Assembly: GCA_038063875.1 (NCBI GenBank)
Contig: JBBTUH010000028.1
Coordinates: 17,046-81,045 of the forward strand
Origin: Patescibacteria group bacterium
GTDB taxonomy: Bacteria > Patescibacteriota > Microgenomatia > UBA10105 > UBA927
Direction of reading: 5' to 3'
Length of the DNA stretch: 64,000 nucleotides
Part shown: one piece after another, positions 7,556 to 41,100 of the stretch
Layout of the letters: each line of letters begins with the position of its first letter
How positions within the stretch are numbered: the stretch's first letter is position 1
Notes under the pieces: model-generated
The model's input: the letters and a program-made list of their open reading frames with translations, nothing else
The model's database searches: none
Told to the model about the DNA's origin: nothing
Position numbers and translations under genes: made by a program

Positions 7556-7560
7556 AAAAT

Positions 7561-9958: not shown

Positions 9959-9964
9959 CTATTA

Positions 9965-10759: not shown

Positions 10760-10801
10760 ACTCTTCTGGTCGCCACGCTTTGTATTTCGTATGATAGTCT
10801 C

Positions 10802-14667: not shown

Positions 14668-14684
14668 CAAAATAAGTATATATT

Positions 14685-15962: not shown

Positions 15963-16283
15963 ATGAACCACTCTATTCCCAAAGACGTCCAAATGATTGT
16001 TGATCAAATCATAACTAACTATAAACCACAAAAAATAGTTCTTTTTGGCTCACACGCTGAGGGACATGCGACGAAAGATAGCGACTATGATCTTTTCATG
16101 ATCAAAAACACTTCTGGAACTATATCCAAACGTCAATACGACGTATGGAAATCTATCGATAACTGGAGCATACCCTTTGATTTTATTGTCTATACCCCAG
16201 AAGAAGTCAAACAAGCAACTATTGATAAAAGTTGGTTTCTCAATCAAATAGAAACGAAAGGAAAAGTATTGTATGCCAATTAA
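15963..16283 (+). CDS. Minimal nucleotidyltransferase (Pol-beta superfamily, MNT-type)
   Basis: The motif 'KIVLFGSHAEGHATKDSDYDLFMI' has the form G[SG]x9-13DxD. The 106-aa size is typical of MNT antitoxin-like NTases. No HEPN partner was seen. Confidence 0.65.
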   Translation: MNHSIPKDVQMIVDQIITNYKPQKIVLFGSHAEGHATKDSDYDLFMIKNTSGTISKRQYDVWKSIDNWSIPFDFIVYTPEEVKQATIDKSWFLNQIETKGKVLYAN

Positions 16284-16350: not shown

Positions 16351-16746
16351 CTATGTTTTGCGTATCGCGTGAGGATAAAACGTATCAAAGGAAAGGATGC
16401 CATCAAGACCATATTTCTCTATCACCGCAAGATTGGCACAATCGACAAAGGAACATCCTTTTTTAGTTTGTTTGAGAAAAAGCTCCCATGCTGCGTTTTC
16501 TAGCGCTTCTTCAAGATGAATTTTTATCAGATCTAAATTCGGATATTCATTATAAAATCGTCTTACATCATCCATATCAACCTTATGGCTTAGTACTGTT
16601 CCAACCTCTTGAAGCACATGACCTAAACAATAGAGTGTACCGTTGTCATTTTTTACTTTTTGATATATCGTGTTGGATCGCTTGTGATGAGGATCATGAG
16701 GCACAAATAGTCCAAATAAAAAGTCTGAATCTACGAGTAATTTCAT
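16351..16746 (-). CDS. vapC: PIN-domain ribonuclease toxin (VapC-like)
   Basis: 'LLVDSDFLFGL' supplies the first Asp, and '..SFVDCANLAVIEKYGLDGILSFD' supplies the distal acidic residues of PIN. The gene is coupled to the upstream RHH gene. Confidence 0.7.
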   Translation of the reverse strand: MKLLVDSDFLFGLFVPHDPHHKRSNTIYQKVKNDNGTLYCLGHVLQEVGTVLSHKVDMDDVRRFYNEYPNLDLIKIHLEEALENAAWELFLKQTKKGCSFVDCANLAVIEKYGLDGILSFDTFYPHAIRKT

Positions 16747-16991
16747 ATTGCATACTTTTCGTAATATTCATGAAATACATCCACAGCATTTGTCTTAACT
16801 TTCGCTTTGCAGGCCCCAATAAATCCTTTTCCCCACACTTTCTTTCTCTTTGTTAGTACAGTAATATCTTTTTTCAACACCTCCCTAGCTCCCTCACGAA
16901 GAAGCTCGGAAATATTCTTTTTGCTTGTGGCTGCCAAGAGTGTCAAGTCTCTATGGAGATCATCTGGTATATATACTTGCGTTCGTATCAT
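16743..16991 (-). CDS. Ribbon-helix-helix (CopG/Arc-type) antitoxin
   Basis: 'TQVYIPDDLHRDLTLLAATSKKNISELLREGAREVL' is a canonical RHH β-strand plus two helices. The 4-bp overlap with the PIN gene marks a classic type II TA operon. Confidence 0.6.
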   Translation of the reverse strand: MIRTQVYIPDDLHRDLTLLAATSKKNISELLREGAREVLKKDITVLTKRKKVWGKGFIGACKAKVKTNAVDVFHEYYEKYAI

Positions 16992-17125: not shown

Positions 17126-20100
17126 TCATATGTAATGATTCTGTAATCCTGTCAATACATTATTTTTAAATCGGCTCTTCCCTTTGTTCATGTCACGTAT
17201 CACAGCATGTGTTTTGGTGACCGAACTCTCGATAGTGACTAGTTGCTGCGACCATCTATATACTTCAGGTTGTGGCAGTTTTATTTCGTCATTTTCTTCT
17301 AGATTATTACGATTTTTTTGAAATATATTTCTTACTGCGTTAAATAACTCTATCCCCGCTTCTTTCACTTGCGTCACTGCGGGTGAATTGCCTGTCATTT
17401 TTCCTCCGACTACTCCTAGTAGAAACTTCCCGACACGATAGACAAGGTATCCAATCCGGATAGGTGTCTGAATCACGAAAGATATCGCATTTGATACCGC
17501 TGATTGTGTAATAGCGGCAGGTGCCATAACCAATGGGTTTATCTGCGCGCCAAATGCATTGCCCACCATTTGCGCCAAACTATTGATGATAAGAAACGCG
17601 ACGGTTTTACTGGTTGCCGCACGAAGCATTAAATGTCCGACTGGTGTCAATGGCGATGTCACGGCATCGGTAAGTGGCGCAACAGAAAGATTGAAAGGCA
17701 ACGCAAACGCTTCCTCTGTATCTAAAGTATTCCATAATCGTCTCACCGGTACAAAGCGCAATATTTTCTGTTGTGGGGTTGTGGCTTCAAAGACTGGCAC
17801 AGTCTTTTTACCCTGCAACGTCAGAACCGATATGTCACTTACACGATGAATTTCATATCCCTTTGCCTGTAATTGCTCGATCGTTGTTTCTGAAAACAGT
17901 GTCGCGTGGGTAATAGATCTCCACAAAAATGATTGCACTATGTCTACGGGGAGATGGATAAGGTCAGACACAAGAAATACACCAGTTATCACGCGGGCTA
18001 CCACCTGATCATTCTGTTGTAGGTAGGTAATAATTTCTGAAAGAGTAATGGGGTCAACAATACTTGCACCTACAGATTGAAGCATTACGGGTGTTTGCAT
18101 CAAAAAATGAAATATCTCCGGGCCATAAGCATATAAAGATGCTCCAGTAGAAACTATCCCAAGTCCACCCAATAACCAAAATGGCGTTTTCATTTGTGAT
18201 ATATTTTGTAACAAATTTTCATATTTTGCATTTTTCTTTAGATTTGTGACGATGAGTTCTGGTAATTTGTTTTCTTCTGTGATACTAAACCGTCTCGGGC
18301 CCTGTGGCCCTGTAAACAAATTCTGAGGTTTTTTTCCATTGAAAAATGTTTGTATCTGAATCACGAGGCTAGGACGAAGAGTTTCGAGGAGTTGCTGCGC
18401 ATTTACGTTAGGACTATTCGTAAGAAGTGCCTGATACTCTTTCGTTCCCTCAACAGCTGCCACCCAATCATCTATAGTGATTGGTTTCCCATCCAACTCT
18501 TTCTCCAACGCAGGGCGCAAGGACTCAATAAAATCCGCAGTCACAACAGATGTGATATTTTTCACACGAGCTTCCCTTATTTTCTGCGCCTTCACCTCCG
18601 CTTCCTCAAGTGACATGTCAGGATTTAACACAGGTAGCCCAGTATCGGCATACGATAAATACGTAAAGTCATATGATCCTGCCCGAAGCAGTTGCAACGA
18701 CTGTGTTAATTCATCAAATCCGTATGTTTGTAGCATTGCAGAAAAATCGTCATTGTTTTGTTGTTGTCCAATGTCCATTGATACAATTATCCGCTGTACC
18801 ACCTTCATCACAGATTCTGGATTCTGCGATAAAATAGAATCATCCAAAAGCGCTTCAGAATCAATTTCTTTTTGAATATCACGAAGAATTTGCCGTCTAA
18901 AGTGAGACAATCCTCCATTTATTCTCCTTAATTGTGCATCAAAACTATTGACGTAATAATACTTCGCTTCATCAGATAAAAGCTTCACTTCAGACTCTGA
19001 AAGTGATGTACGAATACTATTCGTAGACCATGTTTTTACTTTAGACATATCCCCACGAAATAAACGGCGCTGGAGAGCTACCATAAAATCTTCTGAAGAC
19101 CGTCCATTTCCATCCGGTTTTATATGAAGAAAGTCTGCGATGCTTGACGCCACAAGAGTAAACTCATAAATTTCAGTATCTGAAAATTTTTCGCCATTTG
19201 ATGATTGTTCAAGTACATGGTCAATCTGTGAAAACAACACTTTTGCCAACGGAGAAACGACAGAAAATGGCACAGTAAGTAAAGATGGTCCATTTGAATC
19301 ATCTTCTCCACGAATCATTGTTCCTGCAATATTTTTTACTCTTTCACTTCCAAATAAAAATGACCCATTATCAATTCCATCGGCAGTAAACCAATTTGTT
19401 CTGTCTGCGACAAACCAAATCCAATCAAGGTCTATATTTGGATTTATATACGCAACAACTCGTTCAAGCGGTGTGGCACCCGTCTCGATTGATGCTATCG
19501 TATGAAACATCGTCCTACTGTCCACCGTGTCAAATACCCCATCATCAATAGCATGCCTCACAATATTCGTTCGATCCATAAAGAACGCAAGACCATGACG
19601 CGCAGAATCAGCCTGAAGTAATGTTGAAAAATCCGGATAATCTTCTGTTAAAATATCCGACATTCTCCGCCCAAACATATCATTTGTTATCGATTGAGGT
19701 AAATATCTATCAAGTTTTTTTAAAACAACACTCTGTTCTCCTACCCCCAGACTAGACGATGATGGCACCACATTCAAATTTTTTGGAAATATAAATGGGA
19801 ATACTTTACGCAATTGTTGTCCTGCCCGCACTGTTTTCTGCATCCACAACAAAGCTGAAGGGTAGCGATCAAGATTGAAATTTTTAATCACTCGTCCAAA
19901 TGCGGTACAGCCCGATGTTGCCCCCAAAACGTCTCCATCTTGAGAAAAATCCGCCGCATATACTCGTGATATACTAAAAAGCGGTGTGGGGGTACTCGAG
20001 TAGGAAATCTGTGTTATAGTAGCACTTGGATGATAAGCCAGATTTGACTCTACTCTTGTAGAATCTCCAAAGTCCCCGCGAGGGGATTTTTTGGTGGTAT

Positions 20101-23100
20101 CAGCAACAGAATCCCCTCCTCCACACTCTTTTTGAAGCGCCTCCAACTGAGCCTTTTTCTGCAATTCTTTATCATTGAGAGTCTTCACGTCGCCAAATAT
20201 CGCCCGCATGATCGAACCTGCAAATGCGCGAGTCTTTATAAGCGCACCCTCAAAAGATATTTGGTTTTGCGTTGCATTCTCCCTTGTCCTAATCTGATCA
20301 AAACCAAAGCGACTATTTGATTCAGAAAGCCCAAATGGCCCATTGAGAATAGAATTTTGTTGATCTATGTTTTTTCCCCAATTTCCAAAAACTTCATCAG
20401 TCGTAAGATGGAAATATCCTATGATTTGCGAAGCATCATATCCTCGTAATTGCGCAAACGGAATAATAAGTTCAGAAAAATCTCCGTTTGCGCTCATACG
20501 ATACAGTGCCAATTTTCCCTCTTCTGTATCCCAATCAAATAGCTTTGCTTCTTTGAGTGTCTGTAATATAAATATCAACCCTTGAGCTCCTTTCCAATAA
20601 AATATTTCCTCAAATTTCTTCGTTGACAATCCAACCTTATCAGCAATCAAATACTGCAAAGTAGTAACCACGAGCTCTTGAGATTCGTCATGATTGACAC
20701 GTGCAGTTCTATTTCCTATAAGAAATATGTGCAATTTCTCATGAAGCATTTCGACAGCCGCCCATACAGGATCATCAATTATACTTTGTGCGATAATAAG
20801 CCCTCCGCCTGTAGCGCTCCCCCGCGCTCCCACTGGTAATGATCGAACAATCGTTATGTCGTTTACTGGATCTGAAGGATAATCAATCGCATACTGATAT
20901 CCAGGCAACAACTGATACATCAATGATGCAAGTGTAGAAACAAATTGAGCGGGCAGACCACTTTTCTGCACCTCTTTTGAAATAATCGCACCTATGACTC
21001 GTTTTTTTTCTGCAACAGTGCCAAATGGGAAATTAAATTGTACTTGAGATGAAACGAAATCCGGTATAGTCGTGAATTGATCACGTTCCACGACAGCTTG
21101 TTCTCTATTAAATGCATCACTTGCGGCAATCGCGCTTTCTTCATGAACAGGAATATAATCTCCAAGATCAGCGGCATTTTGAAAAGAATCCCAAATATCT
21201 TTTTGTTTGGTATCCAATGCCAATATGTCTCTCACTACATGGCGCGCTATCCATTTTCGATCAGAAATACTCAAGTTTTCATATACATTAAGCTCATTCA
21301 TTATTTGATCTTGAAGTGACTCGTCAATCTGTATGAAGCTCTCTTCGACTCGTTGGATTCGATCTATCAATATCTTTATAGATTTGGGTATTTCATCGCG
21401 TATTGCTAATCGAACTTGCTGTCCAACCCACTGTTTCCTCACCCCTTGCCATAATTCACCCATCCTCTCCCAAAGCTGCATCTGGATCGGTTCGGCAAAA
21501 TGCGGTATCCCCTGATCTCCCCACCATTTTTTCACTTTACCCACTGTAGTTCTAACAAAAACTTGAGCCCTCTGCCACCAAGGTTTTCCTTGCACTACTT
21601 GAATAGTATCAACTGTCGCATGTTCAACACTTAGTGCTTTAATATAGGCTGCTGCCTTTTCTAACGATTCATTTATATATGGAGAGTCCCCATCATGGTT
21701 GTATGGAATATAGGCAACAATTTCTTCTGGTTTGACCTCTAGTTTAAGAGCGACTTCATAATTATTTACATGCTCTAGTCTTTCTTTATGAATGCTTAGT
21801 ATTAAAACTCCGCCTGTTTTTTCACCCCCAGTATAACGTGAAGCTTGTGTTATGTCGGTTGATGCCGATACATATGGAGACAGATTGGTAGGCGTGACTT
21901 CACCTGAATTTGAAAATACGTTTGTGACAATTACTGCGTCTTTGTAAGTTAATCCAAGATCACCATATGGGTTACCTGATGATAAATACTTATTGATAGA
22001 TGACTCTAGTAGATCTAAATTTTTTAACAATTCAGGGTTTATAGTAGAAACTCTCATTAAATTAAATCTTTCAGGAGAAGGATTGTTGACAAAGTTGTTT
22101 ACCGCTTCTATCAATAAGGGGTTCTGAGGATCGTAGCGAATAATATTGGATGTTTGATCGAATACTAAAGTTGCATCGTTTATCCCTCTGTACACAACAA
22201 CATTCTCATCTTTTGGTGAATTATAAATAATCGCACTCTTTGGCCCAGAACCCGAAGAGTATTCGGGCAGATCGATAACTTTGCCGGGGTATTTTAATTT
22301 TTTTAAAAGAACCTCGTTTTCTACGTGGGTTATCTCGGGTCCACCCCACCATTTTCTCACTGCACCCCACGCCCGCTGCCACAAAGGTTGTAACCTTACT
22401 TTTTGAATAGAGTTAACTTCCTTTGCAGGCACAGCCAATATATTTGCCGCATTTCCTGTGTCTATAGCAGGAGCGTTTTGTTGAATAACACTCGATCCCT
22501 TAAATTCGGTAGAGGCTATAAATGTAAATAGCGCTTGAGTTTTTTTCTGATCCTTATAAAGGGTGACTTGTTTCCCAAATGGAGCTTTGATCGGTGTTTT
22601 TGAATCATATTTAGTGGTAGGCGCCTTCATACCCTCATACCAGTAATATCCTCCTTCTTTTGGAATTACCCTTGTTAGTTCAGCTTCGACTTCTTGTACT
22701 TCCATACCAACAGAAAGTATGGCGCACCCACTGTCTGCCGCAAAAACTGATGGAATATGGAGAAATCCAGAACTACCACAACCAGAATTGTCTACAGCTG
22801 ATGTAATAAGATCTTCATAGGTAACAACAGGCGTCCCTTGTGTTTTGAGCCAAGTACTAAAAGCCCGATTGAGTGGAAATTGACTAATCCATTTATATTG
22901 ATCCACATACTCTCGATCACCTATTTCAACAGCATCCTTACTCGCTTGTGGTCCTCTATGTTCATACGCAGGTAACATGGCGTAAAACGTCTGCAACGGC
23001 CGTGAATGCACACCATAACTATTTATAGAACTATCAGTGTCTTCGATTAAAATTGTCTGAACATAATGACTCACCTCATCATAACTAAACATGTATGTAA

Positions 23101-26100
23101 TATTTTGGTTAATACTCGTAAATATATAATTTTTCTTCTGATGCTTCAGTGGTCCTCCAACCACCTCATAGCTTCCGCGAAGCCCATGAGCAAAATCAGG
23201 CATATCTGTGTCAAGGTACGTCGTAGTATCAACTGCATATCCACGCCCCGTTGCTAAAAATGGCCAAAAAGACTCCATTCCACTGGTACTGTTTGTCGGT
23301 AATTCAAATTCAGCAGTGTACGTTGGATCTACTTTTTGTGTTCGTGGAATAATTGAATCAAATAATGCAGCAATCTTATCTCCGTCGCTAAAAGAGATAT
23401 ACCCACTCAAATCCACAAACGACCCTGACACTATCTTTTCATCTAACGCAACCTGTATTTCTGCTGGAAGCACTGTATCCTGCTCACCTATCCCCTTACT
23501 TAAAATATATCTGGTAGACGAATTGACAAAGCTACTTGGTGTCTTATCACCAGACTGAAGTGGCTCAATAGATGGAATAACTCTCCACGATTCCCCTGAA
23601 TTACTTTTATAAAACATGCGATATTGTGGCTGTCCATGTGTATATACCACCCCAAGAGCAAAAGACCGATCTTGAAATGGTATTTTTATTGGATCAGAAA
23701 GATATACGTATATATCTTTCCCCAGTAAAACTTTTTGAGTAAATTTGATCTGTAATTCTTCTAGCAACACAAGTAGTTCTCTCGGTGACATCGTCGGTAC
23801 GTACAACTGGGGAGAATAGTAGGCAAGATCTTTTATCAGTTTCGCCTGCTCAGTTGTCTTATCGATCTCTAAAGCTATATTTTCTGCACGTATTGGATTT
23901 TCAAATGGTATCGTGCGTTTAAATTGCGAAACAATAAGCTCATTAATATCAGAAACAATTTCTACCACCAACTCTTCTGGTATCCACGACACATAGTTCG
24001 TAGCTCTTGTTGGTGTAATATTTAATCTTGTATTTTGTGCAACGCGTTCCTCAACTACTCGCCCAACCTCTGGCTCTGTAGCGGCATATGCATTATTGAG
24101 GTAAAGTGCCTCATTTTCCGAAACAACCATCGCTTTAGGCAAACGTATTCCGATAATATTTACTAAACTAGGACTCGAATATCGTAAATGAAGCGTTGAA
24201 TTGACAGCTTCTTTAGAAGACGCATAGAGCCGTACCTTTGTGGCATCAGTCGTATCACCGAATCTCCCAAAATATCCTGGAATTACCCGCTCATCACTGT
24301 TTCCTATCGTGTAGTATACGGTGACCCATTCAGAATCTGGGAGTTTTTCAAGAATACTTTTTTGAATAGCCAACCTCTCATTTCCAGAGGATTTATACAC
24401 TTTATCTAATGTCTGCGCGTCATATCCCGCTTGTTGCAATAATGCAGTGGTTTTTGGCGAAACATACTCACTACTCATACGAGTATTCGTACCTATACCA
24501 GTACTAAACACTGTTTTTAATATTTCTTCTGAGACTGCTGCATTGCCAGTATCAAATGTAGTAGTTAGATTAAATAATCGTGCCAAATTTGGATCTATAA
24601 TATGTAAAACTTGCTGATCTCCCCACCATTTTTTCATTGCCTCCACTGCCCTCTCCCATACTGGCAAATCTTTCTCTCCATATCTATGCACAAATCCACC
24701 TATCAACTTCTGCCATGCTGTGGCTGCCAACACATCTTCGTCTTTTTCAAACTTATTTTCTGGCTCAATTGATACTAGTTTCAATCGTTCCTTTTCCGTA
24801 ACCCCTAATTCTGCCAATCGAATTGGTCCGCGCTTTTCTAATACGACATTGGTAGAAAGATAGCGTCTCAGCCAATCCCAGTGATGCACTGGTAAATCTT
24901 GTCGTGGCAATCCGTTTAAAAAGAAATGAGTATCTATAGAACTCAGCGCATCTTGATTAGACGCTTGCGCCAGCACAGCAAACGCGTTATCTATAATTAC
25001 AATATTTGCCGCCTCCTGCTCTGTAGTCGACCCCGCATCCGTAAATACCACATCAGTTATAGACAAAGAAGGATGAGAATAATACTGGACACCCCCAATA
25101 GAAAGATCCCTCAGTGCGTTTCCTAACGCAGTACGGAGCACTTCGATATCGACCAGAGTACCTTGCGGCAACATGATGATAAAGTCATTAGCCGATGGAT
25201 GGAATACAATTTGTGCAGTGACCCCCGTCTTTCGCAAGAACTCCCGCGTCACATGCTCGACTACAGGACGAAATTGCTTCTTAATCAGCTCGTCGCCAGC
25301 CACATCTCCCAGAGTTTTTTCAAAATCTGTATTGACATGCTTTAAGACTCCTGCAAATCCGACTCGCAACATGCGCACCGCATTCCCGTAGCCTTTGGTT
25401 GTACGCACCGTCTCAATGACCCTGACGACATCAGGAAACACACGAAGTGTTTCATCGGGATTTTCTTTCTGCAATGCCGACTGCACATCGTTAGCTGTAT
25501 CCTCAAGCAGATCATCTACCATCAGCGTCGCCACCACCTGTGTCAAAAACGTTTTAAATCCTTCATCATTTGTGTCTAATGTATCAATAGAATCTAAAAT
25601 AGCATTGAGCCTAGGGTGCGTCTTTCGATAATTTTGAATCTGCTCTCCTGTATACGGCTTCTGATTTTTAGCGGCCAGCATAAATTTTTGCCTGTCAATA
25701 CGAGATAGATCTTCTAAGCTAAGCTTTTCTTCAAACGATGTATGAAGCCCTATAGACTGCGATACGATACGATCCTTTACATACAACATCTTTTGATCAG
25801 ATAGCAACACATCAAACGCTTGCGTCAAAGGGTTGGATGCATTTTTTACTGCGTGTATATCACGTACGATGATGGCATATTTGTCTCCCGTGACACGAAG
25901 ATACGCATATTGACGGGATCCGTCTTTTATCTTGTCTCGTGCTTTATCAAAAAGCCACATAATTTTTTTTAAAAGATGATCCCCAACTGTATGCTGATCC
26001 CATACATTTTTTGCAGACTTATTGGCATTAAAAAGTTCTTGCACATCATCGACGCGCAACACTCGCCAACCGAGTGCTTCCAAAAGTAACCATACTGAAG

Positions 26101-29100
26101 ATCGATAGGTCATCTGTGGCATTTGTCCCGATATATTCATCGCAGCCAACCACTCGTCCGGATCAGACAACTGTGCTAAGGATTTTTTGTCAAACATATC
26201 GCGGGTAAGAGGTGGCAACGACTTTTGATGTAACGGATCAAAAAAATGTTCGGTAAAAAGTGTGAGAACTGCAGGATCGCCCAAAAGAAGCGTTTTGAAT
26301 ACTTTGGCGAAAGGATCGGTAGGGCTTCTGTCAGAAAAGGTAAGAAACGCCTGTACTATGGTCGCTGCCACAACCTCCCCTTGCTGCTTACGAAACGAAT
26401 CGTTTTCAGAAAACGGCGAACGATGTGTAGGCGCCTCAGCTTGCATGAGCTTTTGACTTTGAATATACATACTAACCCCAGTAGGAGCGATAATTTCCCA
26501 ATCAGAAAAATAGGTTGCCAGTGCTTGTAGCGACTGCTTAACATACACGTCTCCTGTAAGCGCGGACTCATCTTGCCCATCTGCCAAAACTATTCGCACA
26601 TTCTTGATTTTTTCATCCATAATTATCACGAGTGCAGGCGTACTATCGTATGACGACACCAACAAAACCATCGCCCCACGCTCCATTGATTGATATACCT
26701 CATTCTGAATATCGTCATTATTGATATATTTTTGGAGCTCTTCAAGACGAGATGCTTTTTCACTTCTTATCGTCTTTAAATCGATACTTCCCACTGCTAA
26801 ATATTCTATTTGCTGTATGTCTTGCGCTAACAATTGCTTTTCTAACTCATGAAAAAGTCTTGGAAGATCCTTCGGATCAATGCTTGATGGAATACCATGA
26901 GAAGCAAAATATTCTTCATCAAAAATATAGCGTGCGATACCTACCTGATCCAAAAATACTATTTCTCCCTCAGGAGTTACAAGTGCGTTTACATATTTCG
27001 GCTGACTGGCTACAACCGTGTTAAGATCCCCGTGTGGAAGTTGTGTATCGAGATACAGCGTCTCTAGAGCAGACTGTAGCTTTTTGTACAGAATTATTTT
27101 ATCCGTTAATGATTCTGTATCATTTATTGCTTGAAGTAGCGATTTTCCCTGTATATATTCCATTACAGCCATTTGATTTATGTTGTTTGCATCTTTCACC
27201 CATCCATAAAAGGCTGGCTTTACCCTTGAAGATATTGGTTGTATTGCCATTTCCTGTCCGTTTAATGAAGCGCGAAATAATTCGTCAGTGGACACATCTA
27301 TACGCCGTCTCTCACGAAAATCTGGTGGTGGATCGTTCAATAAGGAAGTGTCGTGATACACTTTTACAACCACACGTTCAAACGCCTTGCTCTGAGGCGC
27401 CTTACGGTATCCAATGACAACATTCGCCTGAGCACCACCTCCAATTCTATCCTTTGTTACAAACACGAGTGAACCATCACCAAAAAGCGTGTAGTGCGGC
27501 GCTCCAAAAGCTTGGAGCCCAATTTTTAATACTAATTGTATACGATCAGGTATCAATTTTATTTCCTCTCTCGCGTACCGCCATGTCCCTGGTTGCAGCG
27601 CTGCACGAATTTGTGTAGGTAACGAGGAAATGGACGATATATTGGTCAATAGTGGTGCTACATATGGCACAAACCATGGAGCGACGTATTGATTGAGCAA
27701 ATTTCCTATGACGGTTAAAATATTTGAAAGGACGGTCGGATCAGCTCCTGTAGCACTTCCTAATTGTCTTGGCAACAGCAACGCTGCTGATCCAGTAATT
27801 TTTTTCCAAAAAGATTCTGGTTGTGAGCTTGTGCTGTTTGCGGTAGACACGTCTGTCCTCACCCCAGGTAAATCAAAATACGATTGAGGTACGTAAATCC
27901 CCAATGGGACATCTACATTAAATGATAAATTGATCTGCCTATCCTTTCCAACCTTTATAGTCGGATATAATGTACCCAAGTCAAGAATTGCTCCCTCTGT
28001 AAGCGGTGTCCATTCATCTTTTTTTAGATGCTCAGCATTAAGCTTGTATTGGAATGCACTACTTGTTTTTATATATAACAATCCATTTTCTGTTCGCAAT
28101 CGAAATGCCTCATCAGGAAACTGATTTGCTGGAAGCTTTATATCAGACGTTGATCCTGATCCAGCCACTAATTCTTTTTTCTTTGGATTCTCCACCGGTA
28201 ATTGTTGTTGGAAAAATATAAATTGTGTCCCCAAATCATCAATAGGCACACCGTTACTATATCCAAGTGTTGATAATTTTTCAGCGGCTTGCTTTGGATT
28301 TTGACTTCTCTGCAACACTTCTTCTATCACATCATCTACAGAATTAAACCGATCAGGAATTTTTGATTGCGAAACCTTAGACACCCAATCAGAACTCAGC
28401 ATTATCCTGTCCCCAGGCTGCAGTTGATATATCGATATATGTATCTGTTCGACAGACAACTTGCCATACCCGAAGACCTTTGGAGCGCTTGTTTCCACAG
28501 AGTCATACGCCTGCACTGCATCCCCTGCTTCTAATAATGGTTGTAATATACTACCTTTAAATAATGGGACACCTTGTGCATCATATAACTGACCCATGTG
28601 ATAAATTTTTCCATTTCGTAAAATACGAGCCTCTGCATCTCCTATTCGTATCATCATGATTTTATTATTTGGTAATAATTTTGCGATCACGCCTGTAGTA
28701 GGAAATTGACCTAATTCTTCCGCCAAAACTCTCTCACTACTCGCCAACTCACCATTTAATACTTGACGAAATCTTTCTAAATTTTCTTGTGTCCACACCC
28801 AAGTGGCCTTTCGTATTTGCCCAATCTTATCGGATTTAAAAAAGTCAATAATATTATTAAATAATCGTATTGCGCCTTTCTGAGAATTAATAAACTCTCC
28901 GCGTAAAACAGATACTCCATCAGACACCATAGCCACACCACTTTGAATACCAAACGCTGCATAGTCATTTATACTTACCCCTTTTTGTGGGATTTCCGTG
29001 TTTAAATATCCCTCAGTTAAGAGCGCATGAGAAATCAAATATTCATCATCTTTTGTAGGACGCAATTGCGAAATCAACGGTGTTGGCAGTGGGGTACGAT

Positions 29101-32100
29101 CGTTCTCATCTTCAACACGCGTCTGCTCATCAATCGCAATACGAGACTGTGCAGTATTCAACGAAAATCTCGCAAAAAATGGTGTGCTCCATTTCAAAAA
29201 TGAACTTTGAAGAATAGTCTCTGGCGCAGGCATCCAGGCACGAATTTTATCCATCACATATTCTGCAGCGGGTTGGGCAGGTTTCTCATTTACTAAGCTT
29301 TGTTTTTCATCAATAGTAATTCTAGTATTTGATCGTATCAACTCTTCATCTACTCCTACTGTCTGAGCCATAATTGCAGTCAAGCGATTCGCCCGCTCGT
29401 TCTTCTTAGCTCTTGCAATCAGTCGCTGAATCCGATCTTGACTCCACGTACGAAATAATTCACGCGTTGAAATGGAAATATGCACCAAACTAATCTGAGG
29501 AAACTGATCCTGATTCGCAACGATATATTGTAATGCATCTTTTCCGCTTACTACTCCATTTGGCGTATTCACATCCCAGCGATCATCTAGTGTAAACCCT
29601 AAATTATTCACAGCAAACGCCGCCATCACAAGATTCGTCGAACCCACAAGCTTCCTTGGTCGGGAAAACGCTGATAAAGATCGAAGTCGCGAAACAAATG
29701 AGTCCATGTCGACCAATCCTAATCCCATCGTAAGGGCGTCGTAATCATGATTCTGCTTGACGCTTATTGGAACAAAATGAATATTCCAAGATTGAAACGG
29801 AATATATATATTTTCAAAAATTGGATGATCATAAAAAAACTCAGTCATTGACTGTCCAATTGATGTATCTGTTAATCTCAAAAGCTTTATACCTTTTGAC
29901 AAAAGATCCACTAACACTGTGTTTATAGTTGGAGCATCAAATCGTATGGCGCCATGAGCATCTGCTCCCTTTTTAAGCTCTTGTATAAGCCGAAGTGCAT
30001 CGGTGTCCAGTTGTGTAAGCCGTTGCCTAAATTCATCATCTGAATAATTATGCATCAATGATTGATCATCTTTTATAAGAGCGCTAAATACCATTTGCTC
30101 GAGACCGAGATGAACAAGCACATCCTGATTGTCTGCAAACAATGAGGTTCCAATTATTCTTCTGATCTCCTCGCGAATTATTTTGGTGTTTCGTATGCTT
30201 ATGATGGTGCGCAATAGAGTTCCCACAACTTTTTCTTGTTGAAACGTATTTTCTGAATTAACAAGGCCAATCTCAAATTTCATTTTTCTTAAAAGCTCAT
30301 CTATCACAATAGTTCTATCGTTACTTGAAAGTTCGGTTGAATGTAAATACAACAACGTAGAAAGCATGGTCTTATTCCCAGATGCTTGAGACATACGAGA
30401 AGGCTCCTGTTCAAGAATGAGTCGGGGGAGTTGTGCCAGCAACACAATTGGGTGAATTTTCGACACGTCGATGTTAGCTTCTTCTGCGATAGCGCGAACA
30501 CGCTGATCATCTAATCTAAACTGCTCAGCAAGTGATGAAATTATGTCATCTGATGTATATGTGTCGGTTTGCGGTGTGATACTCTCCACACCTAATATCA
30601 ATACACGAAACTGTGACCAAGTCGCGATAAATCGATCATATAATTGATGAACATTATCAAGTATTGAAATAATCGGTGGCTCCATCCCGAATGCCACAGC
30701 TTCCTCAGTTACACCAATAACATTACTGAACGCACACGGATTCGACAGGCCACCACCATCTTGTGCATATACTTTTTCTATCAACATGGCGCTGCCACAT
30801 GCACGATTTTGTATAGAACTAGTTACATTTCTCACTACTTGCTGTGCAGGTATTACGATGGGATCATACGCTCGATGAAGCGCTTTTCCTGCTCGCACCG
30901 CCTGGAGAGCAAACCTCGGATCAATGCGTTGACGCACTTGTCTGATAGCTTGTGTTATAGATTGTTGCGTCGGAATCGGTTGCACTTTAGCTGGTGCAGT
31001 CACAACAGGTTGTTCTACATTTTGAGCTGTATTACTAATCCGCTTCACTTCTGGAGAAAAATTTTGTGAAAAAAGATATTGTACTGATTGTTTCAGAGAG
31101 GTATCAAGTTGCCACAATGCTTTCCACCAGTACATAATTGCTTCTCGAACAAGAGATCGTCGTGCATCCGGACCTTTAAAATACTCATCAAATTCGGCAT
31201 CATATCTACGCTCATCAAAAGATGTTACCCCTTCTCTTTTGAATGTAAGCTCCTTTTGATAATCCGCATTGTGCCGTGCGATAATGGCTGCTTTTGCTTT
31301 CCATGTATTTATACTTTTTTTCACCTGACCGCTCATCAAATTTGATTGCGCGGGTATAGGCTGAACTTTAAATGCTGCCTGCGCGTCTTCCTTATATATT
31401 TCATTTGTTATGATGTCTTGAAATGGCTTATAATAATTTCTCACTGCATCAACATCCAATTGTTTATAGGTCCATTCACCAAAAGATTCTTTGTTATTCC
31501 ATGTTGGCAAATATCCAGGACCTAATAAAATATTATATGCGGATAGGAATGGTAGCTTAATTATTCCTAACGACGATTCTTGTGGAATAAGTGTGATGGC
31601 ATGTAAATTTTGAACAAGATAGTACAAAAAATAATCAGTGAGTGTCTTATGTTGTTCACCCGCAAAATCTCTCGCTATTTGATCTCTCCGAATTAAATCA
31701 AACAATAGTCCTTGATCTAACTCACCATTTGATCCAACCCAGGGGGTATCAGTTTCAAAACTTTTTCCTTGCTGAATTATAGCTAATATATGCTGCAGTT
31801 CAACTAATAAACTCTCAAAACCATTATCATTTTCCACTCTTTTAGCCAGATCCTTTGAGATTTCTCCAATAACTTGAGCGAGCCGGACAGTTCTCCCGCC
31901 AGTTGAGTCACCGAGAAATCCTTCTCCGTGACGGAGTCGAACATAATCAAGAAGGGTTGCACCGTCCATTGTGTATTCCACTCCGGATTCAAAAATAGTT
32001 CGCGTTGCTAGTTTATCATCAAGTGCATCCGTGATAGTTGCAATTGATGTTATGGTTATACCATTGGGATATAATGCGTTTATCGCATCTCTAAATCCGT

Positions 32101-35100
32101 TAAATCCAAACGCTGTTACAGAATCTATAGGTCTACCCGTCAACCATTCAAAACGTAATCTAGCATTTACCATCGGATCATTCTGATTTCCATCGCTTAC
32201 GATGGGAAATAAAATATTTTGTTGAAACGTTATCCCAGCAGGGTCTTTTGGCAACAGTTTACCCATAGCGTCATTAATTTGAGATCCGTCTGCCATAAAA
32301 AACTTACGAGAAAGCGCTATGAATGAAAATTCACCTGTTTGAGTGTTAAGAAACACAATGATATTTTGATCGTTCTTAGTCGACGTAATTGGAATATTTG
32401 GATCCTCGTCACCTATGCTGTTTAAATGAGAATCCATGCCTAAAATAAGGAATGAAACTATTGGGTTTTCAAATACTGCTTTTTTTTGTTCATCTGTCGG
32501 ATTTGCTACTCCTACTATTCGTAGCCAAAAAGATTCTCCTTCAAGGTTTGCTAGTAGAACCCGTTGATTTACTGCCCATCTATAAATTCCTTTTGACATG
32601 AATGCAACAAGTGGATTTTTTGCAGACTGTGAATCTATCCAATCCTGTTGTATGGACTCTTCATACTGATCTTGTTGCGTCGTTGTTGCAGTTTCTGTGG
32701 GTAACTGTGCTGTAGCAGTATCTACAGGAGCAGACGTTTCAGAGGGCGATGCTGTTTCTGGATTCGTTTGAATTTGCTGGATTATCGCAGCTGGCTCCCT
32801 TATCGGCAGTTGAGGTGTCGGAGAAAAAGCGACGTTTAGCCAAATCACCACACTCAACAAGCCGTACGCTATAGATAGCACGCCAATCGTGACACCTGCA
32901 GTCCATTTCAATCCGTCTCCCACCCACTGAAGCCATGTTTTTTTATATGGATCTTTGGTGAGATTCATCGTTACCACATCTGTATTATCTGGAAACGTTA
33001 TAACAAGGTTTGTCGTTTGCTTTTTTACCGTATCTAAATTAAATCGAACAGCTCTGCTGCCCACTTGAGCAGTATCCAACGATACCGCTGTCGCCACGGC
33101 ACGTTCCTCTACTCGCTCAATTTGATAAAGAGCAAATCGTGAAATATCATGCACGATAACGGGGACAAACAAAGGATTACCGGTCACAAAAAGAATGCCT
33201 CGAGTAAAGATATGTATAAACCCTTGGACAAATCTGAAGTTTGTTGGAACAGATGCGTCCCACCAGTTTGGAAAAAGTACAAAATCGCGAGACGTCCGTA
33301 CGATCGCCTTAAGCGAATCTGATGGAATTATCTGCTCAACTAGACGCAGTCCATCATGTGCAATCCACGGCAGTATTCCTATCGGTCCTCCGCGAATCCA
33401 CATCCATCCATCACGCAGTGCCATAATGCCAAGGTTGGCAGCCTGCTTCGTACCACTATACTCGAATGAAAATGGCTTTACCCATGCATGTACTAAGCCA
33501 ACCACTCCATCGCGAACAACTCGTGTCGGTCCCCACTTTCCTAACGATGCGAAAAATCCTGGCTTAGCAAGTCGTGTCTCTTTTTCTCCTGTGGTAATTA
33601 TGATGTTTCTCCTCTCTTCACTGGTCACTTGAATCTTTGGTGCTACATCAAGATAAAATCTCGCTCGTTCTATATCTATCTTTATGTTATCGGTAATTGC
33701 CTCCGGACCATCAACTGATTCAAACACACTAATCAATCGGCTATATTCTACCTCCAACGGCTTACCATTTACTTGCAAACGAATATCTGGACTGGATTTT
33801 TTTAATTGTCGAAGCAACACCGATATTTCTCCCACAAGTGTTTGTTTTTCCACTTTTGCTACTTCTAATCTAGCGTTTGCAATGAGAGCGCGGGCGACTA
33901 TCATATCTAATTCATAAGATAATGATACTGACGCTCCATTCACCTGACGGGCAACTTCAGGAAAAATTGTCTCGCTCACTAATTCTGCCTCCACGAATTC
34001 CGCTAATGCTTCATCATCTGAATACCCAGAGATTGCCTGCGTTAATCGTTCGTGAAGAATGATATATTGATCTGCGCCTAATAGTAAAACTTGCTCAAAT
34101 CTTTCCGCTGCAGCCAAGATGTCTGTAAGGTTGGCTGTTTGAATAAAATATACCAATGGTGAAGTATCACGTGTATCAAATTGTTTTATGAAAGGCACAA
34201 ATACAGATATGGTCTCTAGTCTCCCGAGTGTTATTTCCACTTGTTTGTTTATAGAATTCTCTCTCTGTTTACTCGTCATCGACGAATCAATGACAGATCG
34301 CACCGCCTCATCTATTCTTGATCGAATTATTGATCTCAATGCCACTCTTGCAATACCCGCTATTTGGAAACTACCCGGCTTATCAAATAACAAGAGCTCA
34401 CTGGCATCTCGTAAGAGTGTGATATCTGTCAAAAGCACACCGCTTGTTTTAACCAGCTCTTCATACCATTTTTGTCGAGCATCTTCTTTTTGCTTTTGGG
34501 CGATGAGCGAATTTTGAGTTTCGTTCAGTCGTCTCGCAAGCCCGCGAATTGCGCTTGCCCGCTCTACTTCTGACTGCTCGGTAAACCAATCGCCAAGTCG
34601 TGCATGAAGTAATGTTTCGAGTCCTTGGGTATCAAGAGTTTCTTTTTCAATTAATGTATCGACTATAAATTCAGTCTGTTCGCTATACCAACGACGATAT
34701 GCATCAACTACTCCATCAATTGCTTTTTTATCTATATTCAATATGTTTTGCGCGCGGTTTTGAAGAAATACTGAAGGTAACAGGGAAATACCATCAAACC
34801 ACCCGTCATCACGAAGTTTTCGTTTAATAAGGTTAAATGACACACGATCATTGCGATATAAGGCTTCCTCAACCAGATTTTGCCTATATACGTCAGCCAC
34901 TTGAGCGTCCCATTGGGTCAGTTCTTCCATCGCTCTTTCGGTCACTAATCGCGCATACGCAGGAATGAAAGATGATGCTTGCTCGTCAGATTCAAGTCGT
35001 TGATCTTCCTCTAGTACAGTTCTCACGATTTTCTCAATTTTTGACTTCATAGTGCTCACGCTATCCCCTATAATTACCGTAGCCATGACTCGCTTTTGTA

Positions 35101-38100
35101 TTTCTGTAAGATTATTTGTAAACACGTGTGCAATAAAAAGCTTTGCCTGCGTTCGCTCTTCTTTTTTATTTGTGAGTTGGGCCACAACTTCACCCAAAAC
35201 AAAACTCAAATACTGCTGTGCTTCTGCAACGCCACTTATTTGCTCAAACCCATGATTAAACGCCGCATTTTCGGCTATATCCCTTTCAGCAAAAGACTGT
35301 TTGATATCAGCCTGTAATTGAACGCGCACAGCTTCTCGATCGTTCAAATACATTTCATACTGTAGTGCCAAAGCGATTCCTTTTTCTGGACCAAGGACAG
35401 ACTCCATAATTTCTCCAGTTCTTTGGGGAATCACTGCTCGTGCTGCTTGTGGTTGATCTTTTACATCACCAAGCCACGTTTCTATACTTTTATACATCTC
35501 GTTTATAAATTCTTTGTCACTCATCCCGCGAGCTAATAGAATATCATCAGAGGTGATTCCCTCTTCTTTCAGTCTCTGTCGAAGCAATAAACTAATTTCA
35601 CTTTTCTTTGCTCCATTTAAATACGCCTGAACAACTGGTCCATCCCGATGCGTAGCAAAAAGCAAAAAGTCCGCAGTGCGAACACGCAATGCATCTTGTA
35701 TGACAGGTAGAGATTCTAACAATCCCGTGATCAACAGCTGCCTATGCGCTGTACGCCATGCGGCTTTTGATTCTTCTGATTCTAATTTTGCAATGAATGC
35801 AGTGGATTCTTCTCTCGCCAGTTGTTTTTGTCGCAATTTTAGTAATTCAGCAGCTTTTATTTGCGATTCTGTAAGTGGTACGGTGATTGGCTTATCTACA
35901 TAAAATAACCCTAATCCATAGGCTGTAAGAGCTGGTTCTCCGAGATCCATCATGAAAGAAGCCTCATCCATCACTTTCTGTACTTCACCAAACATGTTCC
36001 ACAATGCAATTGGAGGGACTAACGCCGGTGTCAAAGCTTCACCTGCAACTGCAGTAAGAAGCAATACTTGTGGGTTTGATATGGATTGATTCGCTTTTCT
36101 CACTTCTGCCGCACGTTTTTCAATACTAGGAGCTAACTCAGCAGCTTGTTTTACTGCGGCAATTTCTAATACTGCCCTACGATCCTGTTCTGCCCTCAAC
36201 TGTTCGAGTTGCAACGCTAATTGTTTTTCAGCGTCTAACGACGTAGTAATTGCGCTTATGTCCAATCGTGCTTGATCAGAGACTGATGCTTGATCAAACA
36301 AACGTTCTTCCGATTGCCCAATTTTTGCTGTAACAGACCGGAGTAATTTACCAACCTGCCTATCTAGTTGAAGCTGCAAAACAGTTTCAAATGCCAAAAA
36401 TGCTTCGGAAATTGCTTCTATTTTTTCCACAGTCTTAATGCGATCAAGTGCTTTATCTTTTAACAACACATCTAGCTCTTCAAGAAGTGACAATGGTGTT
36501 TCACGCGTCACTGTTAATCCTGCTGTATTTAAGGCATTTTTGAGCGTTCTTGTAGCTACACGTGATGTATTTGATAAAGGGAAAAAAGAAATGCGCGCAG
36601 CAAGAGACTGCAACCCTTGCACGAGTGGCGATATTTGTGCCCTACGTTCTGCTATTTGTTGTCGAAGTTCCTCTCGATGAACAGATCGTTTTTCTGCTGC
36701 CCTCAATTTCTTTTCTTCATCTACAATTTTTTGCAATCGTGCCTGTTCTTGCGCGTCTACCTTACTAACTCGCAACTGTTCAGAAGCATCTTGTGTGGCA
36801 AAAAATGCATCTACTTTCTGTTGCAATGCTTCATCTTCCTTTTCCATCTGTGCCAATCGCTCTGTAGCATACGTTTGACGCGCTTTCTCAATGACTTCCT
36901 GTCTCCACTCAGGATAATCTCTTTTGGCATCGACAAATAACGTGGCGCTAATATTTCTTCTTTTATCAACTAACATTGCATCAATACGAGCTTGTAGTTG
37001 TTCTTCTGATCCACCAAAGACTATTAACTTATGTAAAGCGGAATTAGTCACAAATATATTTTTCAACGTTCCTAGTTGCATAAGTGCGGTAAGCTGACGA
37101 ATCTGGCTTCCCGTTTGAATACTTCGCGACACACCACTACTAAATGGCAAAGTTAGTTCAACGACAGGACCAACAACTGGCGTGACACCAGTTAATAACG
37201 AACGTCCGACTAATTGAGGAGTTGTAATGGAACTATCAACCTCATCCAATGCTTTAAATACTGCAGCTACTGAACGGCTCCAGCTTGCCATATCTTTATA
37301 CACTTGGTCTTCAGAATCTCGCCGCTGAGTTTGTGCTTTTTTGATATCATTTGCATATGTTTTATTGAGCGTCTGCGTTGTGCCACTAATCCAATCTGAT
37401 TTTTTTAGATTAAGAAGCGCAAATATCTCATCGGTCACATTATTTTTGTCTAAAACACCTTGAATAGTCGTTTGTACAACTTGTTCAGAGTACCCACCAA
37501 CGATTGCATTCTTTACATATTCATCTTTCAAAATAACGCTTTGTACTGTGGTCAATAATATATTTGCGTCTATTTGTCGAATTCTCTCAGCTTCTTCCAC
37601 CTTCTGTTGTTCTCCAATATCTGTAACCAACGCATCTATCGCAATCCGTTTTTTTTGAGCAACCTGTGCTTGCTCCCTCGTTAATCGATCCGCTTCACGC
37701 GCAACGGATTGTTGAGCAACTTCACGCAGTCTCCTTGCTACTCTCAAATCTTGTAGCTTTTTTCTTGTATTTACGTATGCAGTAAATTGTCGAATTCGTG
37801 GAAAACCAGTCACTACTGATGAAGGCACGACTACTGGAATCAACGCATCTTGTATCACATCTAAACGACCACCTACGCGCAATTCATTACCCGTGAGCCA
37901 AATCGCCTGAGAGAAATTTCCCAAATATTCAGTGATTAAGGCAAATGGGCTTGACGCCCCACCACCCGGTGCGTCACCACTTTTTCTCATCAACAAATAC
38001 TGTGCTATATCTGCAACAATTTGGTTATAGGAATCTGTCGTTATACTTTTAAAATTTGGACTAAACTTAGTGAGGGTGTTTTCTATTTCTGTACGATGGG

Positions 38101-41100
38101 TCTTGAGGAAATCTGCTTCAGACACTCCTTCCCTCACCCACTCAGAGCTTGATTTCTCCAATGCCTTCAATGCAAGCTGTTCTTGGGTAAGCACTGTAGG
38201 TATTTGATCTGTATTGACAGTGATTGATATGATTGTCCGAGCGTAGACCTTAAGGAGCTCCTCAACCAAATTATTGTCAATTGCTTGAACAAGGTGTGGC
38301 GAAACGTGATCTTCATTCCACGTTGCGTTTTGAGTTAATGCTCGGATGATCTCTGCAGAATCTGATGGCACATTCGTCAAATCTCCAGCTGTAAGAGTAG
38401 CAAGCACTCGAGCAACAATCTGTTTCTCCGTAGCACTTGTTAACCCAACAATATTTGCAAATTGATCCAAAATTTTCTGCACCTCTATTTTCGCCGAAAC
38501 GGGTATAGATTCTCCCTCACTCCATACATTATATTTTCTCAAAAACAAAACGAATGCATTGATGCGATCTGTAATAGAATCTAAAATGACTCTGTCCGTT
38601 TCTCTATACTGCAAATCTTTCGGTGCTACTGCGTTGTAGTTTGTTATGGTTCGTAGTAATAATGCTGTCGTCGAATCAGCTTCAGTCGCACTTACTGATA
38701 CAGCATTTACATCTTGTTGGACTTGATAGATGGTCTGTAGCATTGGATCAATGAGGGTCGTACGCAATGAACTTCGAACATTAGCTGCTACTTGTGCGGC
38801 GGTTGACAATCTCACGGCAAGATCAGCGTTGGAATTTTCATCGCCTATAAGTAAAAAGGTTATATACTGCTCTAGCTTCGTGAACTTTTTATCTGCGGCA
38901 AATAGATCAAAAAATTCTATTAATTTTGCTTCGCTCATCGGGAGATCACCGTTATTTTTTATCAACGCTCTTAACTTTTCGCTAATTGTCTTGACTGCTT
39001 TTTCTGCTTGCGCATCGATTTTATCAAGATCAGTAATAGATTTGCGCCCTCTTACAAGCAATGTATCGACAAATGTCGATGCAAAGTCTGTAAGCTTTTT
39101 TTGTGTTCTCCCTGGTGCATTGGTATCTCCACTCTCTATCGATCTTACCCATGATGCAAATACGGTATCAATAGAAAATAATTTCTTTAACGTCCCAAAC
39201 GCTGTGAACTCTTTTCCATCTTCAGTAAACCATGCTGTGCGTACTACATCTGCTTGAATGTCTAAGATTGATTTCTTCGGCGCATTTTTAGCTGCAAGAA
39301 GCGCTATAATTTCACCATCTGGATCTTTATAGATAAATGGTTTTTCCTCTCCTATCCGGATATATAGTTGCCAGTCTTCGAGCGTGAATGCGCGTATTTT
39401 TTGCAATCCATTCTTTATCGACTCAAATAACTCAATAAAATCTTCTTTGGTCAACGGAACTTCATCTGTCGTTTGCTTTATACGAATGCTTCCTTTTTGT
39501 ATAGCCTCTTCCCGCCATATAACAGCCTGAAGCAATAGATCTACATACTCCTGTTGCGTCGAAGGGACGAGGAACGGAACCTCTGACGAATTTATAGGCT
39601 CTTTATTGAATAACGCTGGTGTCACCTCTATCGTCTCATTATATTTATCTTGATAAAGCCGTAAAAACTCATATACCGTCATCATCCGAGCCATTGCAAC
39701 AGAAGAAAGCTGTTTACTTTTGTAGTCGTATGGTAAATATAAGTCAAACTGTGGGCGATCCAATATCACAGTGAAAAGTAAAGAAAAGTAACCAACAGTA
39801 TACCTTCGTATCTCATCTACTGAAAGTTTAGGTCGATATTTATATGACCCATGATCAAATAACATAAATGTATATGTCCCATCATCTTTTTTCACCAACA
39901 TAAGGTTATGTCCATAAATTAACTCAACATCATCAATGTACATATGATTCTTTGATAATTTCTCAATAAAATTGATATACAATGGGGCAAGCTCTGCCGG
40001 TGGTAAAGCTTCATATATCGCTCCAAACTCTACCCCTACCACCAATGGAGCAATATAAAATAAATGTGACGGAGATACATATGACACGGGGTTAACCAGT
40101 CTCGATTGAACAGCGTCTTCTGGTAATCTTCGATATTCTGCTAACCCTAAATAGTCTCCAACTGGCTTAACAATAAATCGCTCTAGATTTGACCTATTTG
40201 TTAACTCATATACTATTCGAGAATTATCTTCAGCATTCGGCAACGCCCGAATTACCCATGTGTCATCCAAAATTGTGCTTACAATTTTTCCTGACTGAAT
40301 ATATTCGTATATTTTATTGTCTGAATCGATCGATAAATCGATTGTATTTATGCTTAATTGAGTAGCTTTATAATGCGAATATAACGCCTTCATAACCCGC
40401 TCTGTTATCAATGTCAGATTCGCCGATTGCAACTTAAATGATGCTAATTTCAAATACTTTTGAACCACTACGGTGTAGCTCAACATAAACTCTACTTCTG
40501 TCGTTGGCGCCTCATGTCCGGCAAGAACTGACTGTGGATCAACCCATATCTTGGTCATATCGTTAATAAGCCCTATTACACTTCCCTGACTTATATCTCC
40601 AAGCAACAATGCTTGCACAAACCCAGTCAGATATTCCAATGCGCCATCCGTATTCTTATCTATAGCTGCTTTCAAATCAGTAAGGGGCTTTTGTACCTCT
40701 GACTGATTTAGTGCGTTTATTACTGCGTCATACGTTGCGACTGGAATAACCACTCCTTTAAATGCCAGCTCGATTGCCTTAATCAATGGCGCCTGAAACT
40801 CAGGCTTTAAACTATCCGGCGTCAACTTGCCCGCGATGTATTGGTTTGATTTTTCTTGCACTTTTTTATGCAACTGCTCCTGTGAAATGGGTGGCTGATT
40901 TGATTTACCAATATCCGAATATAAGCCAACTTCTTTCGCCAAACTCAACCATGCGATAATATCCGCTTCTATACTCTTAATCTTCTTTAATCCATCAGTA
41001 TCAGCTGGTAACTTCGACGTATCAAAAACTTTAAACATAGTATTTGCTTTACTCGCGTTAATCAATTCATCTTCATTGTCCTTTGTGTCTGCAAGAATAT

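Follow-up and report, generated by a model that had tools for sequence, protein, structure and literature searches.

We analysed a window of 64,000 nucleotides from contig JBBTUH010000028.1 of a Patescibacteria group bacterium (assembly GCA_038063875.1, positions 17,046 to 81,045 of the forward strand). The ORF list and its translation place on the minus strand of this window a giant open reading frame (ORF) of 13,399 amino acids (17126..57325), in which residue n begins at window position 57325-3(n-1). The same gene was also called at 13,399 amino acids on a contig of an independent assembly (L002). The protein is essentially non-repetitive by self-BLAST, and the only match in a Pfam scan was a marginal one to LytR_cpsA_psr at residues ~8393-8492. 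Here we describe a divergent domain of this protein, predicted to be a phosphatase of the PPM/PP2C family and called module 2 below, together with a kinase-like neighbour and an upstream PP2C domain, module 1.

A preliminary description of this DNA had flagged module 2 at residues 9440-9710, which correspond exactly to window positions 28196-29008 on the minus strand, within one ORF. We place the domain at residues 9444-9705 (28211..28996, minus strand; ~260 amino acids) on the basis of a family hidden Markov model (HMM), an hhalign comparison and an AlphaFold2 model searched with Foldseek; the HMM envelope, 9436-9706, nearly matches the limits first proposed. The three motif-bearing peptides singled out at that stage were found at residues 9456-9477, 9558-9580 and 9637-9653, ordered as in PP2Cs; the second Gly-Gly of 'DGxGG' is missing, as had been stated, and the sequence reads 'DGVSVLRGE'. 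A plus-strand reading of 28196-29008 was rejected, its translation being full of stops. No competing ORF of at least 65 amino acids overlaps the module 2 region and no Rfam match falls over it.

The giant's own sequence gave two weak direct signals of a PP2C relationship, a match to NCBIfam Stp1_PP2C_phos (E=0.016) and BLAST alignments of PrpC proteins to residues 9514-9651. A full HMMER (phmmer) scan with residues 9250-10449 against 1.84 billion representative proteins returned 22 representative hits. Fourteen proteins from this library had their best stretch exactly over module 2, with E-values from 8e-12 to 3e-4 and 27-35% identity, and in these the homologous domain is typically C-terminal, in proteins of 500-2,750 amino acids. 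The alignment of the 14 homologous domains with the module 2 segment of the giant (A1) contains the invariant columns G15, D30, D45-G46, G138-D139, Q181, P191, D222 and D272-D273, which by their aligned positions correspond to the familiar series of PP2C motifs I, II, 'GDSR', VIII and XI. When the A1 profile was compared with the PDB it matched, nearly over its full length, Stp1 (7e-15), PBCP (6ae9; 1.4e-14), tPphA (2e-12) and PstP (8e-8). Against an alignment of module 1 with canonical PrpC-like proteins, hhalign gave 99.5% probability (E=2.8e-23) over 218 columns. A search for homologous proteins with the A1 profile, its candidates capped at 8000, recovered only P0018 and canonical PrpC-like PP2Cs. 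To avoid circularity, we also built a leave-one-out HMM from the 14 outside members only and ran it over the whole 13,399 amino acids, where it found two places only, 9444-9705 (126.8 bits, E=6e-41) and 4211-4454 (14.8 bits). These comparisons support a homology of module 2 to PP2C that is significant but transitive, leading from the giant to the subfamily and from the subfamily to the PP2Cs in the PDB, and at the level of sequence the resemblance lies far beyond chance.

The subfamily that includes module 2 is small and divergent, lies on the margin of Pfam PP2C_2 (PF13672) and has the signature vQD...ADGV[ST]GAG...GD.EAR...N.P.Q.G...SSDG...DDY. At E<=1, PP2C_2 matches 13 of the 15 subfamily members (13 of the 14 outside the giant). 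When nine full-length members were scanned, four passed the PP2C_2 gathering cut-off (24 bits) and four scored 21-23 bits; P0011, one of the nine, had no PP2C match at E<=0.001. The source annotations of the members read 'PrpC' or 'protein phosphatase 2C family protein [Candidatus Gottesmanbacteria]'. The domain usually stands at the C-terminus of large proteins, anchored in the membrane, from ultra-small prokaryotes, and in some of them it follows FHA domains; these lie just upstream of the PP2C domain in P0011 and P0018, which fits a role in phospho-Ser/Thr signalling. The subfamily occurs in candidate phyla radiation (CPR) bacteria and in one DPANN archaeon, a member of ~1,930 amino acids (P0017/P0032) coming from a metagenome-assembled genome (MAG) of Candidatus Woesearchaeota.

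The five aspartates that align with the metal ligands of PPM phosphatases are all kept in module 2 in the profile alignments, as is G9470. The equivalent of motif I is 'SINDYAAF' (28952..28975, minus strand, as are all motifs below), in which D9454 occupies the invariant column D30 and which aligns with 'EDAFFV' of PBCP 6ae9; before this Asp the family has QD, canonical PP2Cs have ED and module 2 has ND. Motif II is 'VSDGVS' (28910..28927), with D9469-G9470 in the invariant columns D45 and G46; hhalign pairs it with DGMGG, so that the two residues align with the metal-bridging Asp and the Gly of that motif. The 'GDSR' motif takes the form 'IGDAEAR' (28625..28645; invariant columns G138 and D139), aligned with HVGDSR of Stp1, and here D9563 aligns with the third-metal Asp. 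Column analysis, including an alignment (A3) with an invariant S-D-G, located motif VIII at 'SSDWVS' (28379..28396), where D9646 is kept and is followed by W9647. Finally, motif XI is 'PIDDLGTQ' (28223..28246; invariant columns D272 and D273), which aligns with 'LDNITV' of Stp1 and places D9696 at the Asp of the canonical 'DN', the stretch 'IDDLGTQFIFF' (9695-9705) corresponding to PP2C motif XI. Altogether the giant keeps 24 of the 35 columns that 12 or more of the 14 subfamily members have conserved.

The AlphaFold2 model of module 2, computed with A1, had a mean predicted local distance difference test score (pLDDT) of 80.6 and a predicted template modelling score (pTM) of 0.82. The top 50 Foldseek matches of this model in the PDB were exclusively PPM phosphatases, tPphA, PppA, Stp1 and PstP among them; the best was tPphA (E=1.3e-10), with target-normalised template modelling scores of up to 0.72. 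The profile-profile comparison (hhalign, 99.5%) and the AlphaFold2 and Foldseek results both point to PP2C, as had been proposed, and the fold (a central beta-sandwich with helices on its flanks) and homology of residues ~9444-9705 are very probably those of a PP2C domain. The outcome named beforehand as one that would refute the proposal, a segment for which no PP2C fold is predicted, thus did not occur.

Module 2 resembles the bacterial PP2Cs Stp1 (2pk0), tPphA (2j86/2j82), PstP (1txo/2cm1) and PppA (6jkv) in predicted fold, motif order and metal-ligand Asp residues, including that of the third metal. It differs from them in having DGVS for DGMGG, ND for ED, SDW for SDG and DD for DN, and in having no direct sequence match; moreover, those proteins are stand-alone or membrane-anchored domains of ~240 amino acids, whereas module 2 lies at residue ~9,450 of a 13,399-residue protein. 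With the DGV[ST]GAG subfamily (P0007-P0021, e.g., MBI3379324.1 of Candidatus Gottesmanbacteria) it has 27-35% identity over the whole domain and shares GD.EAR.(I/L)R, the Q/P/G core, DD(Y/L) and large multi-domain hosts of CPR type. The subfamily copies, however, are C-terminal and keep H, QD, GAG and SDG, while the copy of the giant is internal and has K, ND, no GAG and SDW; unlike the giant, no subfamily member has a kinase-like neighbour. The subfamily also recalls the PBCP/PTC7 type (6ae9, 'ADGVSGW'), which its profile matches at E=1.4e-14 and with which it shares motif II 'AVADGVSG' and motif I 'xDAF'. PBCP is a plant photosystem II phosphatase with a defined substrate, and its likeness to the module 2 subfamily carries no evidence of orthology.

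Module 1, at residues 4211-4454 (43964..44695, minus strand), is a canonical PP2C domain of the Stp1/PrpC type, matching Stp1/PstP in the PDB (phmmer, E~4e-11) and NCBIfam Stp1_PP2C_phos (E=1.3e-18). That it matches Stp1/PstP directly, while module 2 alone matches nothing in the PDB or Pfam, agrees with the earlier view of module 2 as the more divergent of the two. Because the leave-one-out HMM separates them so widely, module 1 is closest to Stp1/PrpC and the protein is non-repetitive, the two modules belong to different PP2C subfamilies, module 2 being no duplicate.

A comparison with fragments of related giant genes (L090, L091 and L092) outlined a variable block of ~900 amino acids around module 2 (residues ~9383-10296; 26438..29179, minus strand), which comprises module 2, a linker and a kinase-like domain. 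In the giant it is flanked by 'MPAPETILQSSFLKWSTPFF' (9365-9384) and 'APTHRSPFSEND' (10298-10309). In P0016/L090 the flanks are ~20 amino acids apart and the slot is nearly empty; in P0001/L091 they enclose a different insert of ~490 amino acids with an HExxH motif; and P0003/L092 lacks 8892-10296 altogether. Thus the two domains, PP2C-like and kinase-like, are absent together in L090 and L092 and replaced together in L091. Both domains share one accessory block of a mosaic backbone, and their joint loss or replacement partly supports the view that they function together. The stretch bounded by 'MPAPETIL..LKWSTPFF' and 'APTHRSPFSEND' behaves like a slot whose content can be exchanged.

The kinase-like core spans residues 9948-10140 (26906..27484, minus strand) and was delimited from Pfam-positive homologs, weak NCBIfam matches, a profile comparison with the PDB and an AlphaFold2 model. 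Its candidate motifs are a G-loop GGGAQANV at 9962, VVVKVY at 9985 (K9988), HGDLN at 10098 (HGD, 10098-10100) and FLDQVG at 10124 (D10126). The core matches NCBIfam Bud32 (0.004) and PrkT (0.03) weakly and PADLOC PD-T4-6 at 7e-4; the homologs P0005 and P0006 (34-39% identity) exceed the cut-off of Pfam PK_Tyr_Ser-Thr. A three-sequence profile of the kinase-like domain matched only protein kinases in the PDB among the best 60 of 76 matches, at only E~0.015. Foldseek likewise returned only kinases for the AlphaFold2 model, PknB first (E=2e-4, template modelling score ~0.28), although the low confidence of that model makes these matches suggestive only. On this support, which is weak though consistent, we regard residues 9948-10140 as a probable Hanks/Bud32-like kinase-like domain. 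The spacing of ~500 amino acids noted previously is right when measured from the DG motif (9469) to the G-loop (9962); the domain itself lies ~250 amino acids downstream of module 2, and the interdomain region 9706-9947 has no similarity in the PDB.

The arrangement recalls the PknB/PstP, Stk1/Stp1 and PpkA/PppA/Fha1 pairs in placing a PP2C beside a Hanks-like kinase-like domain; FHA domains, too, accompany the PP2C subfamily of module 2 in P0011 and P0018. It differs from those pairs in that both domains are part of one polypeptide, as an accessory insert, in that the kinase-like domain is barely recognisable and in that neither an FHA domain nor a substrate could be identified in the window. 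If module 2 follows the standard PPM mechanism, which is the most likely one, D9454, D9469 (with G9470), D9646 and D9696 would hold a binuclear Mn2+/Mg2+ centre and D9563 a third metal, and a metal-activated water would hydrolyse phospho-Ser/Thr. The PP2C and kinase-like domains could then plausibly act as a local writer/eraser pair whose target is either the giant protein or a substrate common to both domains.

The position of the block relative to the membrane was considered from a Kyte-Doolittle scan, in which the giant protein has only two strong transmembrane helices, 45-63 and 8145-8163 (the latter at 32837-32893, minus strand). The internal helix has a Lys-rich N-side and is followed by a Pro/Thr/Glu-rich linker on its C-side and then by the LCP-like (LytR_cpsA_psr) domain at residues 8393-8492 (31850-32149, minus strand; marginal Pfam match, 25.6 vs 24.6 bits). 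LCP domains are extracytoplasmic. Transmembrane helix, linker and LCP-like domain form the usual LCP topology, and everything downstream, module 2 included, would by this reading of the sequence be outside the cell. The weaker hydrophobic segments 9226-9244 and 9881-9899 are possible transmembrane helices that could alter this topology.

Taken as a whole, the reading of module 2 as a true PPM/PP2C domain of standard mechanism, plausibly paired as eraser with a kinase-like writer, is one that we favour moderately, and several observations weigh against it. The module 2 segment alone has no Pfam match, even at E<=1, and no PDB match at E<=10 (phmmer); a word-indexed search for homologous proteins and PADLOC gave no match for it either, and no ortholog of the module 2 region was retrieved for a test of purifying selection. 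The missing Pfam and PDB matches would suit a chance array of short D/G motifs unrelated to PP2C, an explanation that we consider practically negligible against the phmmer scan, the A1 profile, Foldseek, hhalign and the leave-one-out HMM, all of them highly significant and mutually consistent; what the failed searches indicate is that a single-sequence query cannot detect module 2, and they do not show its absence. It is also very improbable that module 2 arose from module 1 by internal duplication and then decayed. A weak self-BLAST match between 9558-9648 and 4299-4382 (27% identity, E=0.057) points in that direction, while the external subfamily HMM gives the two modules 126.8 and 14.8 bits, module 1 is nearest to Stp1/PrpC and the giant protein is essentially non-repetitive; on the self-BLAST result and the HMM scores we rejected this origin. 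Also against the favoured reading are the changes in module 2 itself, where 11 of the 35 strongly conserved subfamily columns differ, H9448K and Q9453N depart from the subfamily, the Gly-rich 'GAG' that follows DGV[ST] in the subfamily is lost after DGVS, and G9647W adjoins the metal-ligand Asp of motif VIII at a Gly that is invariant in 14 of 14 members and in the canonical 'SDG'. Such changes would be expected of a pseudophosphatase or regulatory domain that kept the PP2C fold with catalysis lost or crippled and acted as a module for phospho-peptide or metal-dependent docking that might, for instance, regulate the kinase-like domain beside it. It would also agree with module 2 being the most divergent member, without a Pfam match where 13 of the 14 others match PP2C_2. 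We hold this to be unlikely, though less so than the preceding two explanations: all five ligand-aligned Asp and G9470 are kept, when pseudoenzymes usually lose some, the GD.EAR and P/Q/G core positions are kept as well, and the AlphaFold2 confidence is high across the motifs. The suggestion in the preliminary description of a degenerate or regulatory copy was therefore not established, G9647W and the lost Gly-rich loop speaking for it and the retention of every metal-ligand-aligned Asp against it. We lean slightly towards module 2 being still an active metal-dependent phosphatase and rate this as likelier than a pseudophosphatase, a choice that sequence alone cannot decide.

On the same side of the balance stand the points that concern the pairing and the location of the two domains. 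The kinase assignment comes from weak scores and a model with a pLDDT of 55.8, and none of the 22 representative hits carries both a domain of the PP2C subfamily and a kinase-like domain. The phosphatase-kinase cassette first proposed for this region is consequently supported in part, by the common ~900-residue block and not by other proteins or by a firm kinase call, and functional coupling of module 2 to the kinase-like domain is in our judgement possible, at somewhat below even chances. The simple hydropathy profile, in turn, puts module 2 beyond a transmembrane helix and an LCP-like domain, which, if correct, would mean an extracytoplasmic position where ATP-dependent signalling would be unexpected. 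This location would be natural if the PP2C-like/kinase-like block were carried as one cargo by a giant, modular protein that is secreted or exposed at the surface, and if its targets were phosphoproteins of another cell, a host or a neighbour, and not the bacterium's own signalling. In Gottesmanbacteria the giant genes would then be modular carriers in which conserved junction motifs bracket exchangeable enzymatic cargo, with the block as an extracytoplasmic effector pair. In favour of this are the nature of the block as an accessory insert, with a slot that is empty or filled by an HExxH module in relatives, its place downstream of the helix 8145-8163 with the Lys-rich N-side and then of the LCP-like domain, and the organism, a member of the Gottesmanbacteria (CPR) from 0.1-0.2 um groundwater filtrate, a lineage generally regarded as symbiotic. 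If true, the delivered pair would rewrite Ser/Thr phosphorylation in the host cell, and a CPR bacterium would be following a multi-effector logic like that of MARTX. We nevertheless consider it distinctly improbable, given that the topology comes from a crude Kyte-Doolittle scan in which 9226-9244 and 9881-9899 could be transmembrane helices, that the LCP match is marginal (25.6 vs 24.6 bits), that no secretion or processing signal was identified, and that in the ~1,900-residue subfamily members, from the sequences read, a hydrophobic stretch resembling a transmembrane helix lies N-terminal to the domain.

The giant ORF is reproducibly assembled across several Hainich groundwater samples. The neighbouring gene for an M23 peptidase was present on the 23 contigs read, and the majority of those shown come from Hainich groundwater metagenomes of 0.1-0.2 um fractions. 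The adjacent Rho gene is closest to MAGs of Candidatus Gottesmanbacteria (Microgenomates, CPR), several of which likewise have a very long ORF after Rho and the M23 peptidase. The giant ORF of L007 (contig CAYIBX010000002.1), the nearest relative, is 60% identical to that of the window across the first ~2,500 amino acids, and the long ORFs of L008, L019, L010 and L023 have ~25% identity to the giant protein. A single-protein search for related loci found no relative among GTDB genomes, IMG/VR held no related locus, and a search of JGI metagenomes with A4 returned one 2-kb contig. On another independent contig, L001 (sample ERZ1292621), the same gene was called at 10,054 amino acids instead of 13,399; this call would stop inside the kinase-like module (~residue 10,054) and could reflect a frameshift in the strain, a stop codon or faulty assembly. 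A strain variant (L005 and L006, 91-99% identical) has the start of the giant gene split into several ORFs of 273, 1380/1386, 804/780 and >4,000 amino acids.

Two tRNA-Ala genes with anticodons GGC and CGC (57678-57836, minus strand) separate the M23 peptidase gene from the beginning of the giant ORF. Just beyond the 3' end of the giant ORF we noted, from translations only, a small nucleotidyltransferase-like ORF (15963-16283, plus strand) and a PIN/VapC-toxin-like ORF with an ORF resembling a ribbon-helix-helix (RHH) antitoxin (16351-16746 and 16743-16991, minus strand). The flanks (1-15869 and 57836-63165) are rich in envelope functions, namely YfhO-like, GT87/NPCBM and DUF2298 membrane proteins and a LysM-M23 peptidase, and also encode Rho and a DUF4143 AAA ATPase. 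Within the giant ORF itself, all on the minus strand, several motifs were seen without profile support: a Walker A 'GQTGLGKS' with 'LLIDEFD' (50666-51070), possibly DEAD/SecA-like; 'NTDFEKTLGDVAGDEL' (25286-25333), possibly GGDEF/palm-like; 'VVYRGIN' (22178-22198), whose Arg may be of ADP-ribosyltransferase type; and 'HEKLH' (20729-20743), a zincin-type HExxH.

Giant proteins that include Ser/Thr phosphatase domains have been described in Omnitrophota and Actinobacteria (West-Roberts et al., 2023, bioRxiv 10.1101/2023.11.21.568195). The protein described here is like them in exceeding 10,000 amino acids with few detectable domains and unlike them in its phylum (Gottesmanbacteria, CPR); that work names the CPR only in its introduction (Absconditabacteria predation), and Patescibacteria and Microgenomates are absent from its text. 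In our literature search no publication on giant genes of Gottesmanbacteria turned up. Module 2 is a new, highly divergent member of the PPM/PP2C family and a correct, well-delimited domain call. It represents no new kind of biology and is an incremental addition, PP2C domains in giant bacterial proteins having been noted before.

Its value is that of a rare functional handle on a nearly Pfam-dark protein of 13,399 amino acids, whose gene arrangement (Rho, M23 peptidase, giant gene) is syntenically conserved in Gottesmanbacteria. The domain escapes Pfam and PDB searches made with one sequence but is recovered by a subfamily profile combined with structure prediction. The giant gene and its modular slots are a more interesting lead than the PP2C domain itself. 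That one protein combines a kinase-like domain with two PP2C domains differing in origin suggests that Ser/Thr phosphorylation is either a means of regulating the giant protein or among its outputs.

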